A model generated the notes under the pieces. That model had not been told where the DNA came from and did no database searches. It was given only the letters and a program-made list of their open reading frames with translations. A DNA stretch of 8,231 bases from a virus (taxonomy: Duplodnaviria; Heunggongvirae; Uroviricota; Caudoviricetes), in IMG/VR virus record IMGVR_UViG_2671180695_000017; one strand, 5' to 3'. Shown here in pieces: positions 722 to 7,897 of the stretch. Numbering within the stretch: the stretch's first letter is position 1; each line of letters starts with the position of its first letter. Both the position numbers and the translations under genes were made by a program.

Positions 722-1408
722 ATGACCCCAATAAAAATATTTATGACTATTGCTGATTTCAAACGGCCTAAATTGGAGCTCCCAAACGGGGCAAACAAAC
801 TACTACTGCACTCTTGCTGTGCTCCATGTTCCGGTGAAGTGATGGAGGCGCTTCAGGCCTCGGGAATCGACTACACCATCTTTTTCTACAACCCGAACAT
901 TCATCCTCAGAAAGAGTATTTAATTCGTAAGGATGAAAATATTCGCTTTGCTGAACAACACGGCGTGCCGTTTATCGATGCTGATTACGACACCGACAAC
1001 TGGTTTGAACGTGCCAAAGGAATGGAATGGGAGCCTGAGAGGGGGATCCGTTGTACCATGTGTTTTGACATGCGTTTTGAGCGGACAGCGTTGTACGCTG
1101 CTGAAAATGGTTTCAGTGTGATCAGCAGTTCACTGGGCATTTCACGCTGGAAAAATATGCAGCAGGTTAACGAGTGTGGGCGGCGAGCTGTTGCGCATTA
1201 TCCGGGTATGGTGTACTGGGATTATAACTGGCGCAAGCAGGGCGGCTCGTCCCGTATGATTGAAATCAGCAAGCGCGAAAAATTCTATCAGCAGGAATAT
1301 TGTGGCTGTGTGTATTCTCTGCGCGATACCAATCTACACCGCAAATCTCAGGGACGCCCTCTTATCAAAATTGGCCAACTCCACTACGGAAAAGAAGAGA
1401 AGGAGTGA
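722..1408 (+). CDS. QueH-like protein (DUF208 family, putative epoxyqueuosine reductase)
   Basis: 228-aa ORF with the N-proximal motif [11 protein letters not shown], which I recall as the hallmark CCAPC cysteine cluster of DUF208/QueH, plus further conserved Cys (CTMC, CGC). No obvious Shine-Dalgarno before the ATG at 722; an alternative ATG lies at 743. Family assignment is from motif memory, not a search. Confidence 0.55.
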
Positions 1409-1440: not shown

Positions 1441-1469
1441 TTGGCGAGGTGACGTGAGTTAAGTAGAAT
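1441..1469 (+). promoter_or_regulatory. Putative sigma70 promoter for the hok-family mRNA
   Basis: TTGGCG at 1441-1446 (-35) and TAGAAT at 1464-1469 (-10, 5 of 6 to consensus) with a 17-nt spacer. The predicted start near 1476 sits just before the 5' element at 1473-1487 that is complementary to the 3' end of the locus. Confidence 0.3.
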
Positions 1470-1534
1470 GGCTGCGGGTGCTTGAGGCTATCTGTCTCAG
1501 GCATGAACACTGAAAGGCAGATAGAGAAAAGCCC

Positions 1535-1597
1535 CAGTTAACATTTCGCGTCCTGCAAGACGCTTAACATTAATCTGAGGCCCAATCTATGTCTCAC
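1535..1597 (-). ncRNA. Putative Sok-like antisense RNA (antitoxin of the hok-family locus); ends approximate
   Basis: By analogy with hok/sok and the K-12 hokC/mokC/sokC locus, the antisense RNA overlaps the mok start and SD. On the minus strand there is a candidate -35 TTGCCT (+ coordinates 1627-1632), a 17-nt spacer and a weak -10 TAACCT (1604-1609), giving a start near 1597 that would cover the mok ATG (1589-1591) and its GAGG SD (1577-1580). The 3' end is not defined. Confidence 0.25.
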
Positions 1598-1801
1598 AAA
1601 TGTAGGTTAGCCTCTTACGTGCCGAAAGGCAAGGGGAAGCAGGCTATGAAGCAGCAAAAGGCGATGTTAATCGCCCTGATCGTCATCTGTTTAACCGTCA
1701 TAGTGACGGCACTGGTAACGAGGAAAGACCTCTGCGAGGTACGACTCCGAACCGGCCAGACGGAGGTCGCTGTCTTCACAGCTTACGAACCTGAGGAGTA
1801 A
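1589..1801 (+). CDS. Mok-like ORF: in-frame N-terminal extension of the hok-family toxin frame
   Basis: ATG at 1589 with a GAGG SD at 1577-1580 (8-nt spacer), in the same frame and sharing the stop with the toxin ORF. This matches my recollection that K-12 mokC is an in-frame extension of hokC. Confidence 0.5.
   Translation: MSHKCRLASYVPKGKGKQAMKQQKAMLIALIVICLTVIVTALVTRKDLCEVRLRTGQTEVAVFTAYEPEE
1646..1801 (+). CDS. hok: Hok/Gef-family type I toxin (51-aa small membrane peptide)
   Basis: Translation MKQQKAMLIALIVICLTVIVTALVTRKDLCEVRLRTGQTEVAVFTAYEPEE is colinear with and close to E. coli Gef/HokC as I recall it (MKQHKAMIVALIVICITAVVAALVTRKDLCEVHIRTGQTEVAVFTAYESE). Strong SD AAGGGGA at 1631-1637 with an 8-nt spacer; hydrophobic transmembrane segment followed by the conserved RKDLCEV...TGQTEVA motif. 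Confidence 0.85.
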   Translation: MKQQKAMLIALIVICLTVIVTALVTRKDLCEVRLRTGQTEVAVFTAYEPEE

Positions 1802-1869
1802 GAGACCTGGCGGGGGAGAAATCCCTCGCCACCTCTGATGTGTCAGGCATCCTCAACGCACCCGCACTT

Positions 1870-1898
1870 AACCCGGTTCGGCGGGTTTTGTTTTTTTC
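1870..1898 (+). terminator. Intrinsic terminator of the hok-family transcript
   Basis: Stem AACCCG / CGGGTT (1870-1875 pairing with 1882-1887), 6-nt loop, followed by TTTTGTTTTTTT. Immediately preceded by the fbi-like element at 1851-1866. Confidence 0.6.
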
Positions 1899-2242: not shown

Positions 2243-3525
2243 GTGCGGGTATTACTTCGACCTGTTCTGGTACCGGAACTCGGGCTGGTGATCGTTAAGC
2301 CGGGCCGTGAATCCATGCCGGTATTCCACAATACCCGGGTACTGGTGGAGCCGGAACCGAAAAGCATGCGTAATCTGTCGTCCGGGGTCGTTCCTGCCGT
2401 TCGCCAGCCGCTGGCGGAGGATAAATCATTACTGCCATTTTTCAGCGACGAACGAGTGATTCGTGCTGCTGGTGGCGCTGGCGCATTGTCTGACTGGTTA
2501 CTGCGCCATGTTAAATCCTGCCAGTGGCCACACGGCGATTATCACCACAGTGAAACCGTCATTCACCGTTATGGTACCGGCGCAATGGTGTTGTGCTGGC
2601 ACTGCGACAACCAGCTGCGCGACCAGACCTCCGAATCACTCGGGCAACTTGCTCACCAAAACCTGTTTGCATGGATGATTGACGTCATACGCCATGCAAT
2701 GAATGGCTCGCAGGAACGGGAATTATCGCTGGCTGAATTATCCTGGTGGGCGGTCCGCAATCAGGTGGCGGACGCGCTACCGGAAGCGGTATTACGTCAG
2801 GTACCGGCGCAATGGTGTTGTGCTGGCACTGCGACAACCAGCTGCGCGACCAGACCTCCGAATCACTCGGGCAACTTGCTCACCAAAACCTGTCTGCATG
2901 GATGATTGACGTCATACTCCATGCAATGATTGGCTCGCAGGAACGGGAATTATCGCTGGCTGAATTATCCTGGTGGGCGGTCCGCAATCAGGTGGCGGAC
3001 GCGCTACCGGAAGCGGTATTACGTCGTTCGCTGGGGTTGCGTGCGGAAAAAATCCGCTCAATGTACCGTGAAAGCGACATCGTACCGGGAGAGCAGACCG
3101 CCACCAGCATACTGAAGCAGCGCACAAAAAATCTTGCGCCGCTGCCTCACGCCCACCAGCAAAACCCGCCACAGGAAAAGACGGTGGTCAGCATTGCCGT
3201 TGATCCGGAGTCACCGGCTCAGTATCTCCAGCGCCAGAAATCACAACGGGAAGAGATGCCTGTATACACGCGTTGGGTAAAAACGCAGAAATGCATGACG
3301 TGTGGCAATCAGGCAGATGATCCGCATCACATCATTGGTCATGGACTGGGAGGGATGGGAACAAAGGCTGATGATTTGTTTGTTATTCCGCTGTGCCGTA
3401 AATGCCATAGCGAACTACACGCCGGGGTAAAAGATTTTGAAGAAAAACACGGCAGCCAGCTGTTGTTGCTGATTCGTTTTTTAATGCACGCGAGAAATTC
3501 GGGTGTTTTGAAGTGGAAAGCATAA
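2243..3525 (+). pseudogene. YbcO-like (DUF1364-type) zinc-binding putative nuclease gene with N-terminal extension, frame-disrupted by a 227-bp tandem duplication
   Basis: GTG at 2243 with GGAGG at 2234-2238. The frame-2 ORF 2243..2905 and the frame-1 ORF 2746..3525 encode the same ~75-aa stretch (GTGAMVLCWHCDNQLRDQTSESLGQLAHQNL...AVRNQVADALPEAVLR) because 2573-2799 is repeated at 2800-3026 (227 nt, equal to 2 mod 3). Removing one copy gives a single continuous 351-codon ORF ending at 3525. The C-terminus (CMTCGNQADDPHHIIGHG...IPLCRKCHSELH) has a CxxC...HH...CxxCH motif and sits directly upstream of rusA, as ybcO does in DLP12. Confidence 0.55.
2573..3026 (+). repeat. Tandem direct duplication, 2 x 227 bp, 3 mismatches between copies
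   Basis: Direct comparison: 2573-2799 and 2800-3026 are identical except three substitutions (ctgtTtgc vs ctgtCtgc; atacGcc vs atacTcc; atgaAtgg vs atgaTtgg). Junction ...attacgtc|ag|gtaccgg. Confidence 0.9.
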
Positions 3526-4950: not shown

Positions 4951-5148
4951 ATGCTAAAACAGCAGGATATGACAGAAACCGCCAGAGTAGTGTTTAATGA
5001 ATTAAGCGTTACCGAACCGGCGACAGTCGGGGAGATTGCACAGAATACTTACCTTTCACGCGAACGCTGCCAGTTAATACTGACCCAGCTGGTTATGGCG
5101 GGTCTGGCAGACTATCAGTTCGGTTGTTACAGACGCCTTCCGCAGTGA
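4951..5148 (+). CDS. Small putative winged-helix DNA-binding protein (65 aa)
   Basis: ATG at 4951 with AAGGG SD about 8 nt upstream. I prefer this over the tracked GTG at 4864, which has no SD. The stretch TVGEIAQNTYLSRERCQLILTQLVMAGL looks like a helix-turn-helix or winged-helix recognition region. First gene of the Q-dependent late transcript. Confidence 0.45.
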   Translation: MLKQQDMTETARVVFNELSVTEPATVGEIAQNTYLSRERCQLILTQLVMAGLADYQFGCYRRLPQ

Positions 5149-5160
5149 AGGCTTTTTTAT
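5135..5160 (+). terminator. Intrinsic terminator overlapping the stop codon of the small wHTH gene
   Basis: Stem GCCTTC / GAAGGC (5135-5140 pairing with 5147-5152), loop CGCAGT, then TTTTTT (5153-5158). The TGA stop (5146-5148) lies inside the hairpin. Confidence 0.5.
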
Positions 5161-5175
5161 TTGTGGTAAATGGGC

Positions 5176-5206
5176 GGCTGGTGGGTGTTAGGGGCACCCA
5201 CCAGCC
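5176..5206. repeat. Perfect 12-bp inverted repeat with 7-nt spacer in the methyltransferase leader
   Basis: GGCTGGTGGGTG ttagggg CACCCACCAGCC, with no T-run after it. Two further hairpins follow (5248-5266, stem CTGCTTT/AAAGCAG; 5271-5289, stem AGCCT/AGGCT) before the methyltransferase ATG at 5299. Confidence 0.7.
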
Positions 5207-5298
5207 ATCTGCTCATGCGTTGGGTTCACAAGCAAACCTCAGGCCCACTGCTTTGCGCAAAAGCAGAATGAGCCTATCAGAGACAGGCTTAATGATCC

Positions 5299-6348
5299 AT
5301 GCTTAATACTGTAAAAATATCCAGTTGTGAGTTAATCAACGCCGACTGCCTGGAATTTATCCGGTCGTTACCCGAAAATTCTGTTGACCTGATAGTCACG
5401 GACCCGCCGTACTTTAAAGTGAAGCCTGAGGGCTGGGATAACCAGTGGAAGGGCGACGATGATTACCTGAAGTGGCTGGACCAGTGTCTGGCGCAGTTCT
5501 GGCGGGTGCTGAAACCTGCCGGAAGTCTTTACCTGTTCTGTGGTCATCGCCTGGCATCTGATATCGAAATCATGATGCGTGAACGCTTCAGTGTGCTGAA
5601 CCATATTATCTGGGCGAAGCCGTCCGGACGCTGGAACGGATGCAACAAGGAAAGCCTGCGGGCGTATTTCCCCGCCACAGAGCGCATTCTGTTCGCGGAA
5701 CATTATCAGGGGCCGTATCGTCCGAAAGATGCCGGGTATGCGGCGAAGGGCAGTGCACTGAAACAGCATGTGATGGCCCCGCTGATTTCTTACTTTCGTG
5801 ATGCGCGCGCGGCCCTGGGGATAACGGCAAAACAGATTGCAGATGCCACAGGAAAGAAAAACATGGTGTCGCACTGGTTCAGTGCCAGTCAGTGGCAGCT
5901 ACCGAACGAAAGCGATTATCTGAAATTACAGTCGCTGTTTGCCCGGGTGGCAGAAGAGAAACATCAGCGCGGTGAACTGGAAAAGCCCCACCACCAGCTG
6001 GTGGATACGTATACGTCACTGAACCGGCAGTATGTGGAGCTGCAGAGTGAATATAAGCATCTGCGGCGGTATTTTGGTGTGACGGCGCAGGTGCCGTACA
6101 CGGATGTGTGGACACATAAACCGGTGCAGTTCTATCCCGGGAAACATCCGTGCGAAAAACCGGCAGAAATGCTGCAGCAGATAATCAGCGCAAGCAGTCG
6201 TCCGGGTGACCTGGTTGCAGATTTTTTTATGGGCTCAGGTTCAACGGTAAAAGCTGCACTGGCGCTCGGGCGTCGTGCGATTGGCGTTGAACTGGAGACC
6301 GGACGTTTTGAGCAGACAGTCAGGGAAGTTCAGGATTTAATCGTTTGA
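5299..6348 (+). CDS. Orphan DNA methyltransferase, beta-class (DPPY motif IV N-terminal, FxGxG motif I C-terminal); probably N6-adenine-specific
   Basis: DPPYF at residues 35-39 (nt 5401-5415) and FFMGSGST near the C-terminus (around nt 6224-6247), in the circularly permuted order typical of beta-class amino-methyltransferases. No restriction endonuclease gene is adjacent. Confidence 0.85.
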   Translation: MLNTVKISSCELINADCLEFIRSLPENSVDLIVTDPPYFKVKPEGWDNQWKGDDDYLKWLDQCLAQFWRVLKPAGSLYLFCGHRLASDIEIMMRERFSVLNHIIWAKPSGRWNGCNKESLRAYFPATERILFAEHYQGPYRPKDAGYAAKGSALKQHVMAPLISYFRDARAALGITAKQIADATGKKNMVSHWFSASQWQLPNESDYLKLQSLFARVAEEKHQRGELEKPHHQLVDTYTSLNRQYVELQSEYKHLRRYFGVTAQVPYTDVWTHKPVQFYPGKHPCEKPAEMLQQIISASSRPGDLVADFFMGSGSTVKAALALGRRAIGVELETGRFEQTVREVQDLIV

Positions 6349-6397: not shown

Positions 6398-6473
6398 GGC
6401 CCTTTAGCTCAGTGGTGAGAGCGAGCGACTCATAATCGCCAGGTCGCTGGTTCAAATCCAGCAAGGGCCACCA
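6398..6473 (+). tRNA. tRNA with CAU anticodon, closest to E. coli tRNA-Ile2 (lysidine type, reads AUA); phage ileZ-like
   Basis: Manual cloverleaf: acceptor GGCCCTT/AAGGGCC, D-arm GCTC-AGTGGTGA-GAGC, anticodon loop CTCATAA (CAT at 6431-6433), T-arm GCTGG-TTCAAAT-CCAGC, discriminator A plus encoded CCA. Very similar to E. coli ileX as I recall it. Position 27-43 is an A-C mismatch. Confidence 0.85.
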
Positions 6474-6573: not shown

Positions 6574-6650
6574 GCGTTGTTAGCTCAGCCGGACAGAGCA
6601 ATTGCCTTCTAAGCAATCGGTCACTGGTTCGAATCCAGTACAGCGCGCCA
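6574..6650 (+). tRNA. tRNA-Arg (anticodon UCU, reads AGA/AGG); phage argO/argN-like
   Basis: Manual cloverleaf: acceptor GCGTTGT/ACAGCGC (one G-U pair), D-arm GCTC-AGCCGGACA-GAGC, anticodon stem ATTGC/GCAAT with loop CTTCTAA (TCT at 6608-6610), T-arm ACTGG-TTCGAAT-CCAGT, discriminator G plus CCA. Resembles E. coli argU. Confidence 0.85.
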
Positions 6651-7114: not shown

Positions 7115-7194
7115 ATACATATCTGGATTATCACCTGTTACGGTAAAAAGTGATTGCTTACTGTTTTTGTGAATGGCATTGCAGCAGCCGGATA

Positions 7195-7281
7195 ATGTCA
7201 GTGCTGGCTGACGGTGTGCTGGTGGCGGGTGTGGTGGTTGCTGCTTTCCCGTTGCTGAAAAAGAAAACGCCAGACTGTTAG
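7195..7281 (+). CDS. Candidate small hydrophobic peptide ORF (28 aa) in the ORF-poor cargo spacer
   Basis: ATG 7195 to TAG 7279-7281 encodes MSVLADGVLVAGVVVAAFPLLKKKTPDC, a hydrophobic helix-length segment followed by KKK. The SD is weak (GGA 2 nt upstream), so this may be a chance ORF in GT-rich sequence. Confidence 0.15.
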   Translation: MSVLADGVLVAGVVVAAFPLLKKKTPDC

Positions 7282-7505
7282 CCGGGTATCAGTTAGCGGG
7301 AGAAATTTTTAAATACTTCACAATTCAGGCGGTTGATTGTTGTCTGGTTTGCGGGGAGTTTGTTAAAAGAAACTGGCATGGTGAATCCCCCTGTGCGGAG
7401 GGGCAATCAGCGAGTAGGTATATGGGATAATCGCGGATTCAGGTGCTGGTACTGAATTCACCGGGAGGCACCCGGCACCATGCAATGGCACATAGCGCCA
7501 CTCTC

Positions 7506-7535
7506 CAGCCCCTCTCCGGAGGGGCTGTTTATATT
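7506..7535 (+). terminator. Strong intrinsic terminator (+ strand) between the convergent cargo ORFs
   Basis: Perfect 9-bp GC-rich stem CAGCCCCTC / GAGGGGCTG (7506-7514 pairing with 7519-7527), TCCG tetraloop, followed by TTTATATTGATTTT. The opposite strand lacks a T-tract after the hairpin, so it is oriented to stop + strand transcripts. Confidence 0.55.
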
Positions 7536-7561
7536 GATTTTGTCAGATGTGAGTAAACTCC

Positions 7562-7897
7562 TTATGGACTTTGTTGTTTTAGTCCATAAGGACATATTTG
7601 CAGAGTGCAACGGTTATTAAAGCATTCATTCAATACGTTATCTGTATTTGTAGGGCATTCCTGGCTGTTTTTGATTAAATTCCAGAATGTTTTATTGAAT
7701 GGTACTACGTTGTAAATGGTTACAGGTAGCACTTTGTTATTGAGCATGATGCCTGTGTGAGTCAGTGTAAATATACTTTCAGGAGGTAAGAAAGCATCCG
7801 ATTGATACCAGATTATTAATTTTATTTTACTCCATATGACTGAAAAAGATATTCCGCATGATGGCTGGATAACTGTATCAATCACAATCCACTTCAT
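7562..7897 (-). CDS. Hypothetical cargo protein (111 aa) with C-terminal cysteine cluster, encoded antisense to the late operon
   Basis: ATG (7895-7897 on the minus strand) preceded by AAGGA with a 5-nt spacer. C-terminal C-x10-C-x4-C-x4-C pattern ([23 protein letters not shown]). The last 9 codons and the TAA stop lie inside a perfect 10-bp hairpin (7561-7590). About 33% GC. Confidence 0.45.

Follow-up and report, generated by a model that had tools for sequence, protein, structure and literature searches.

The segment 1441-1898 of the window, by which we mean the whole 8,231-nucleotide stretch of viral DNA analysed here, very probably constitutes an entire type I toxin-antitoxin cassette of the hok/mok/sok kind, and represents hokD, a prophage locus of E. 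coli, in its full-length form. We attach the same high confidence to the mechanism proposed for it below. The sequence itself supports the assignment of the toxin to the Hok/Gef family, the assignment of the leader to the hok-leader RNA family and the presence of uninterrupted cis elements. At this level, the locus has everything that characterises members of the hok/sok family. It is also an ordinary element that has been catalogued before. Identical DNA is present in RefSeq, where only the toxin gene is called, and the mok/hok/sok anatomy has been annotated and tested for a locus of phage 933W that is 92% identical. We compared the coordinates of all the features proposed in an earlier sequence-only reading of the window with the sequence between positions 1300 and 2050. 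The features of the cassette are the following, with the strand in brackets.

1441-1469 (+): candidate promoter of the hok mRNA, TTGGCG-17-TAGAAT, the sole sigma-70-like site in the scan of 1300-2050
1476-1897 (+): predicted full-length hok mRNA, about 420 nt; start from the Rfam match and the promoter geometry, end from the terminator
1476-1487 (+): tac element GGGUGCUUGAGG, 5' fold-back partner; from the minimum-energy fold and its conservation across genera
1527-1597 (-): predicted Sok RNA, about 71 nt, transferred from the sokW misc_RNA of phage 933W
1529-1535 (+): AAAGCCCC box, candidate ucb; a prediction from its change of partner in truncated folds
1576-1579 (+): mok Shine-Dalgarno GAGG, 9 nt 5' of the ATG at 1589 and aligned to a GAGG conserved in the Rfam model
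1589-1801 (+): mok, 70 codons, in the hok frame and with the same stop codon; from the ORF list, with the arrangement of mokW and mokC
1604-1632 (-): Sok promoter, TTGCCT (1632-1627)-17-TAACCT (1609-1604); from its identity with the sokW promoter
1646-1801 (+): hok toxin gene of the hokD type, 51 aa, from ATG at 1646 to TAA at 1799-1801; from Pfam and the annotation of the identical ORF in O104:H4
1851-1863 (+): fbi element CCUCAACGCACCC, with C1857 bulged, 3' fold-back partner; from the fold, the duplex controls and conservation
1870-1897 (+): intrinsic terminator of the hok mRNA, a stem at 1870-1887 (6 pairs, 4 of them G-C) followed by TTGTTTTTTT

The toxin gene and its genomic setting

The 51-aa ORF matches the Pfam family HOK_GEF (PF01848) with a score of 80.6 bits, for a cut-off of 22 (E = 6e-23), and the match covers the full 42-position profile. 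This confirms the Hok-family toxin that the sequence-only reading had placed at 1646-1801. The ORF also retains 11 out of the 11 columns that are invariant among HokD, HokW, HokC, HokB and two R1-type Hok proteins. It scores under the curated cut-offs of the NCBIfam Hok HMMs (49.1 vs 73). Hence, the name HokD given to it in RefSeq does not derive from these models. The HokD of E. coli K-12, with a single residue different, is toxic upon expression and has served as a toxic control (bioRxiv 10.1101/2025.08.07.668861).

The in-frame leader ORF resembling Mok, proposed in the same reading at 1589-1801, was retrieved as an ORF of 70 codons that shares its stop codon with hok. This is the arrangement of mokC and mokW and not that of plasmid R1. 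In R1 proper (L012), the 70-codon mok lies in another frame than hok, whereas the Mok of the window is an N-terminally extended Hok. The GAGG at 1576-1579 lies inside the region complementary to the predicted Sok.

A region of 551 bp around the locus is found with 100% identity in many complete E. coli genomes. These include O104:H4 outbreak strains, where the identical ORF is annotated as 'type I toxin-antitoxin system toxin HokD'. More broadly, 3345 of the 5426 complete E. coli genomes have a place covering at least 80% of this 551-bp query. In the O104:H4 strain 2011C-3493, the order of the genes is exonuclease, ydfD, dicB, repressor-type regulators, ydaT, DUF977, queH, hokD, DUF968 and rusA, followed by the Q antiterminator, a methyltransferase, tRNAs and iraM. 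The content of the window corresponds to the part of this Qin-like prophage order that goes from DUF977 to iraM. Flanked by queH on one side and by DUF968-rusA-Q on the other, the cassette occupies the early-right region of a lambdoid prophage of the Qin type, and it has the orientation of the replication genes and of Q, i.e. that of the early-right operon. Both its near-identity to the K-12 hokD and its Qin-type flanks (dicB, ydfD, DUF968/ydfU and the Q antiterminator) assign it to the hokD orthologue group.

We found no IS element or frameshift in the locus, either in the list of ORFs or in the alignment with K-12, and the earlier remark that the window has no IS interruption holds for the locus. 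Further along the window, the DUF968 gene is split by a 227-bp tandem duplication, and the prophage may therefore be partly defective. The ORF at 1969-2241 (90 aa), which lies downstream of the cassette, was considered as a homologue of the K-12 Rem and rejected, since the comparison gave zero similarity.

One close relative is hokD (relF) of the Qin prophage of K-12. It is nearly identical to the window in the coding region, the 3' UTR, fbi and the terminator, with a single nucleotide difference in the 156 nt of the coding region, resulting in the substitution I34L. The neighbourhood is of the same type (dicB ... hokD ... DUF968/ydfU ... Q). The homology extends from about 12 nt 5' of the hok ATG to the terminator. 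Upstream of this point, K-12 has relBE in place of the promoter, tac, Sok, the Sok target and mok, whereas the window continues towards queH. There is no Rfam sok match in the K-12 hokD region, and the K-12 locus keeps fbi even though its partner tac was lost. Judging by this alignment, the hokD of K-12 is a 5'-truncated remnant of the full cassette present in the window.

Predicted folding and refolding of the hok mRNA

The site proposed earlier as the hok promoter (1441-1469) is the only one reported by our promoter scan of 1300-2050. Alone, this is weak evidence, as the expectation from shuffled sequences is 0.6. The site gains support from homologous loci: its -10 hexamer and the surrounding context, GTTAAGTAGAAT, recur in the 933W hokW locus, and the hexamer in this position is TATAAT or TACAAT in other hok loci. 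At the other end, the stem at 1870-1887 with its T run is the only terminator-like site in the scan of the same region, in agreement with the intrinsic terminator that had been placed at about 1870-1898. The covariance-model search suggested by the sequence-only reading gave a match to Rfam RF01794 at 1476-1651 (+), with 120.5 bits for a gathering score of 59 (E = 8.5e-28), covering positions 1-157 of the 157 of the model. Since the match is on the hok-sense strand, RF01794 recognises the leader of the hok mRNA and not the antisense RNA, even if it is named 'sok'. The hok transcript probably starts near G1476, because the Rfam model begins there and the -10 hexamer ends 7 nt before.

The transcript is predicted to be strongly structured. 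The minimum free energy of the RNA 1473-1898 is -176.4 kcal/mol, whereas shuffled sequences have -133 ± 6 (z = -7.09). The sequence-only reading had noticed that TGCGGGTGCTTGAGG (1473-1487) is complementary to CCTCAACGCACCCGCA (1851-1866), and suggested that this pairing, of the tac/fbi kind, folds back the mRNA. The pairing with a single bulge, at C1857, stands. Both the minimum-energy and the centroid folds of the RNA 1473-1898, i.e. the folding that was proposed as a check, have tac (1476-1487) paired with fbi (1851-1863). The part of the claim that probably does not stand concerns positions 1473-1475, since a start at G1476 would leave them outside the RNA. The duplex between the 12-nt 5' end and the 3' UTR has an energy of -21.1 kcal/mol. 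This value was equalled by only 2 out of 2000 shuffled UTRs and, at equal spacing, by none of 1105 other positions of the window.

We then assessed the conservation of this pairing in hok loci of phages, plasmids, K-12 and 54 genome contigs. The contigs were searched with three closely related Hok sequences, and the diversity covered is that of hokC/D/W-like loci plus those of Photorhabdus, Pantoea, Erwinia and Kluyvera. Among the R1-type plasmid loci, we used L010 and L012 and left out L008 and L009, which have an IS just 5' of hok and lack the Rfam sok match. We also left out L057, where the leader is absent and the top duplex is an unrelated hairpin. The tac elements of Photorhabdus and Pantoea were missed by a regex search and found by an unbiased scan for the best duplex. 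The resulting alignment has 12 distinct tac/fbi combinations from Escherichia, Kluyvera, Pseudocitrobacter, Photorhabdus, Pantoea and Erwinia. Conservation of tac, accompanied by compensatory changes, extends over the loci of Escherichia, Kluyvera, Photorhabdus, Pantoea and Erwinia. Across the 12 types, 96.5% of the tac/fbi cells are paired. Shifting the 3' partner by 1-3 columns lowers this to 22-63%. The former value is, however, biased upward because each fbi segment was chosen as the best duplex partner of its tac. The choice of fbi does not affect two other observations. First, the 12 types show compensatory changes at two pairs, from U:A to C:G at position 4 and from G:C to A:U at position 12 (hokB has an extra C:G at position 7, which was not counted since its bulge is aligned otherwise). 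Second, the position of fbi is constant, 41-56 nt 3' of the stop codon. Hence, the folding predicts, and the conservation supports, a primary transcript of about 420 nt that would be closed by tac at its 5' end and by fbi at its 3' end.

These results allow us to weigh the possibility that the features are a chance mix of a short ORF and complementary words, devoid of any functional RNA architecture. The scans for promoters and terminators would fit such a view, since alone they do no better than on shuffled sequences (one site vs 0.6-0.7 expected). Yet, coincidence would also have to account for the Pfam and Rfam matches, for the z-score of the fold, for a tac/fbi duplex that is rarely equalled in controls and for a pairing conserved across genera with compensatory changes. 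On these grounds we regard it as extremely improbable and rejected it.

We also folded the mRNA after removing parts of its 3' end. In the full-length fold (1476-1895), GCCCC at 1532-1535 pairs with GGGG at 1633-1636, just 5' of the start of hok. When the RNA is cut at 1845, 1850 or 1855, the tac positions 1476-1483 move onto 1529-1535, and the GGGG at 1633-1636 is freed. The fold cut at 1860 retains the tac/fbi fold-back. The sequence AAAAGCCCC is conserved in the consensus of RF01794. The folding thus predicts that, in an mRNA without its 3' end, tac has the AAAGCCCC box (1529-1535) as an alternative partner. The Shine-Dalgarno sequence and the AUG of mok stay paired in a hairpin (1577-1614) in both the full-length and the truncated folds, so the opening of the mok site by truncation is not shown from folding alone.

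The predicted Sok antisense RNA and the comparison with known systems

The promoter of the antisense RNA was not reported by the consensus scan of 1300-2050, where its hexamers match 4/6 and 3/6 positions. It is nevertheless conserved: the window and hokW are identical from TGTAGGTTAGCC to GGCAAGG, a stretch that spans both hexamers. In sokW, mutation of the -10 abolished the protection against HokW, and the mutagenic primer puts this -10 on TAACCT (PMC8621323). The identity with the sokW promoter supports the minus-strand promoter that the sequence-only reading had placed at 1604-1632, for a Sok-like RNA over the mok start. The Sok RNA is predicted to fold into a 14-nt single-stranded 5' tail and a hairpin of -28.1 kcal/mol, with a UUUU end. 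It would overlap the start of mok by 9 nt (transcription start at about 1597, mok ATG at 1589), which is the geometry annotated for K-12, where sokC also begins 9 nt inside mokC. The hairpin of the Sok target is about 17 nt longer than in the Rfam consensus. This extension is present in hokW, in P1-like plasmid loci and in Kluyvera loci, and is absent from hokC and from the PPompW 'gef' locus. The locus therefore has the sequence features expected of a cis-encoded antisense Sok with its own promoter, complementary to the initiation region of mok.

A further comparison is with hokW-mokW-sokW of the Stx2 phages 933W and Sp5 (VT2-Sakai), which is 92.3% identical to the window over 418 nt. In the 933W record, mokW and hokW are annotated in frame with a common stop codon, and sokW (71 nt) is annotated on the other strand. 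These three genes map to positions 1589-1801, 1646-1801 and 1527-1597(-) of the window. The Sok promoter, tac and fbi are identical, and both loci have the extended Sok-terminator hairpin. The differences are concentrated in three places. The 5' tail of Sok and the N-terminus of mok differ at several positions, the C-terminus of Hok is VFTAYEPEE in the window and VFVDYESEK in HokW, and the sequence 3' of fbi is unrelated in the hokW locus, which does not have the terminator of the window. The two loci also differ in their position in the prophage, which is the early-right region for the window and near the right end for 933W. The hokW-sokW locus of Sp5/933W is a working type I toxin-antitoxin system, in which HokW, a toxic protein, is inserted in the inner membrane and is neutralised by sokW transcribed from the native sokW promoter (Takada et al., PMC8621323). 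Since this locus, 92% identical, works and the HokD of K-12 is toxic, it is plausible that the module of the window is functional, as was suggested earlier.

Plasmid R1 hok/mok/sok has the same elements in the same order (tac/fbi, predicted tac/ucb and a 70-codon mok). In both loci, the promoter of Sok is inside the mok-hok overlap and Sok lies over the mok start. However, the two Hok proteins are only about 41% identical, tac is GGCGCUUGAGG in R1 and GGGUGCUUGAGG in the window, and the R1 locus is plasmid-borne and stabilises its plasmid. The hokC(gef)/mokC/sokC locus of the E. coli chromosome is closer. Its Hok is 80% identical to that of the window, it has the same tac, and its mok is in frame with hok. 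It differs in that it lies outside prophages, in that an IS186 after the coding region has removed fbi in K-12, and in that the K-12 sokC (59 nt) is shorter than the Sok predicted here.

The mechanism that we propose follows these systems. In the model of R1, the tac/fbi stem locks the full-length mRNA, 3' trimming leads to the pairing of tac with ucb and makes the mRNA translatable and open to Sok, and the binding of Sok results in cleavage by RNase III (PMC9841398). By analogy with both hokW/sokW and the R1 locus, the full-length mRNA of the window would be stable in its closed form, untranslated and not bound by Sok. Slow 3' trimming would open it, making mok translatable and, via translational coupling, also hok. 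Meanwhile, the constitutive and unstable 71-nt Sok, transcribed from the opposite strand, would pair over the ribosome-binding site and start codon of mok, which would block translation and lead to cleavage by RNase III. If the synthesis of Sok stopped, upon loss of the element, prophage induction or shut-off of transcription, the pool of mRNA would give Hok, and the peptide would enter the inner membrane and kill or lyse the cell. It counts against the proposal that the intact chromosomal hokA, hokB and hokC reportedly do not cause post-segregational killing, according to the introduction of a recent survey, which cites earlier work (bioRxiv 10.1101/2025.08.07.668861). In this scheme we infer from the better-studied relatives the Sok transcript, the 3' processing, the coupling between mok and hok and the toxicity of this allele, which differs from K-12 HokD by I34L.

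Possible roles in the prophage

Whether the cassette contributes to maintenance, to defence, to the release of phages or to none of them is not settled. The sole experiment on a prophage hok/sok points to a contribution to lysis and phage release upon induction. Under this hypothesis, which was put forward for hokW-sokW, the supply of Sok stops when the prophage is induced, Hok accumulates and damages the inner membrane, and phages leave the cell earlier or in larger numbers. [quoted passage not shown] The setting of our cassette is compatible with this, because it lies in the early-right operon, co-oriented with the replication genes and Q. Read-through at induction would therefore be expected to meet the Sok promoter head-on. 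Nevertheless, a single study of a single related locus provides this evidence, the locus has a different place in its prophage (in 933W, it is near the right end), the effect was twofold, and the split DUF968 gene indicates that the present prophage may be partly defective. We consider this role a tentative possibility.

One can go further and propose that the cassette is wired to induction. Read-through from the early promoter, once derepressed, would run into the convergent Sok promoter and would also give 5'-extended hok transcripts unable to form the terminal tac/fbi clamp, so that Hok would act as an accessory lysis factor with a set timing. In addition, co-resident hokD-type and hokW-type loci would keep their switches private through the differences in the 5' tail of Sok. 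This more specific scenario is distinctly improbable at present.

Alternatively, in line with the role suggested in the sequence-only reading, the module could be a device for abortive infection or phage exclusion, or an addiction module of the prophage. Shut-off of transcription or loss of the prophage would then deplete the unstable Sok and free Hok. Post-segregational killing is the founding function of the family. Moreover, R1 hok/sok on a high-copy plasmid cut the plating of T4 by 42% and shrank its plaques by about 85%, as cited in PMC8621323. According to a recent survey, Hok homologues occur in thousands of prophages, and hok genes are about fourfold enriched there (bioRxiv 10.1101/2025.08.07.668861). 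However, the same survey found no enrichment of hok beside defence systems, and the effect on T4 was modest and required a high-copy plasmid. A role in exclusion or addiction seems rather unlikely.

Finally, the cassette could be intact yet physiologically silent, i.e. a tightly repressed passenger or a selfish remnant without measurable phenotype. As with other hok/sok loci of the chromosome, loss of the prophage would not lead to killing, and an arrest of transcription would have no effect. The number of places related to our query in an E. coli genome has a median of 2 and reaches 9, and with several related copies in a genome, Sok from other copies could cross-protect. That the mok site is still paired in the truncated fold would also fit tight repression. 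Yet, general cross-protection is argued against by the 5' tail of Sok, which differs from that of sokW. Furthermore, all the regulatory elements are conserved without decay, with 446 records at least 99% identical to the query, and hokW-sokW had measurable effects at its native position in the prophage (PMC8621323). Silence is accordingly a doubtful explanation.

As a discovery, the locus has little importance. Thousands of genomes already have its toxin gene annotated, and hokW/mokW/sokW has been annotated in phage 933W, with its toxin-antitoxin activity demonstrated in 2021. What the analysis adds is of another kind. It indicates that the RefSeq annotation of the locus is incomplete, with hokD called alone and mok and sok missing, and it documents the hokD of K-12 as a 5'-truncated copy of a full cassette. 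The window also provides a clean, uninterrupted locus of the hokD type in which the role of hok/sok inside a prophage can be tested.

Toxin gene and annotation of its 3' end

The Tyr47 codon of the window hok gene is TAC (1784-1786) and is followed by a G, which creates a UACG motif (1784-1787). A-to-I editing by TadA, which changes a tyrosine to a cysteine, has been reported for the hokC, hokD and hokE mRNAs in a recent preprint (bioRxiv 10.1101/2025.08.07.668861). The recoded residue, numbered 46 in that study, corresponds to Tyr47 of the window hok.

The 3' end of the locus is covered by a RefSeq annotation in the O104:H4 homologue (L001):

1843-2022 (L001 8444-8623), minus strand: 59-aa 'hypothetical protein'

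This open reading frame shares sequence with the fbi element of hok, with the terminator and with the beginning of the gene that follows. It was probably called in error, whereas RefSeq leaves the genuine mok and sok features of the hok locus unannotated.

Downstream genes of the prophage

The DUF968 (ydfU-like) gene contains a tandem direct duplication of 227 bp (2573-3025), with copies at 2573-2798 and 2800-3025 that are 99% identical. As a result, the gene is divided between two open reading frames that overlap (2243-2905 and 2746-3525), whereas the O104:H4 homologue is one undivided gene of 1047 bp. Either the duplication is genuine, shifting the frame and making a pseudogene, or it is an assembly artefact.

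Further downstream we identified two tRNA genes and a match to a small-RNA family:

6398-6473, plus strand: prophage tRNA gene with anticodon CAT (Met according to ARAGORN; tRNA-Ile in the annotation of the O104:H4 homologue)
6574-6650, plus strand: prophage tRNA-Arg (TCT) gene
7347-7536, plus strand: STnc100 sRNA family (Rfam RF02076; full-length match, 132.4 bits for a gathering score of 47)

Both tRNA genes lie 3' of the DNA methyltransferase gene. The O104:H4 prophage has three tRNAs at the corresponding place (Ile, Arg, Arg), and the window therefore lacks one Arg gene. The STnc100 match is flanked by a DUF3927-like small open reading frame (7150-7281) and by an iraM-like one on the minus strand (7562-7897).

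Relatives of the locus in Qin and PPompW

The gene directly 5' of the hok promoter in the window is queH:

722-1408, plus strand: QueH epoxyqueuosine reductase gene, inside the prophage (Pfam, 221.5 bits)

In the K-12 Qin prophage, this position is held by relBE. Comparison of positions 5120-5400 of Qin (L002) with positions 1476-1645 of the window revealed that K-12 hokD still has the fbi element and the terminator, but that tac, mok and sok are absent, with relBE in their place. The breakpoint between the two sequences lies approximately 12 nt 5' of the hok ATG.

The hok locus of the PPompW prophage (L011, named 'gef') differs from the window in another manner. Its coding region and 3' UTR are near-identical to those of the window and of K-12 hokD, but its Sok-target hairpin is shorter than, and different from, the one in the stretch of the window it was compared with (1527-1600), and the N-terminus of its mok is also unlike that of the window. 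Because of this combination, hok loci look mosaic, as if the region setting Sok specificity had been swapped independently of the toxin.
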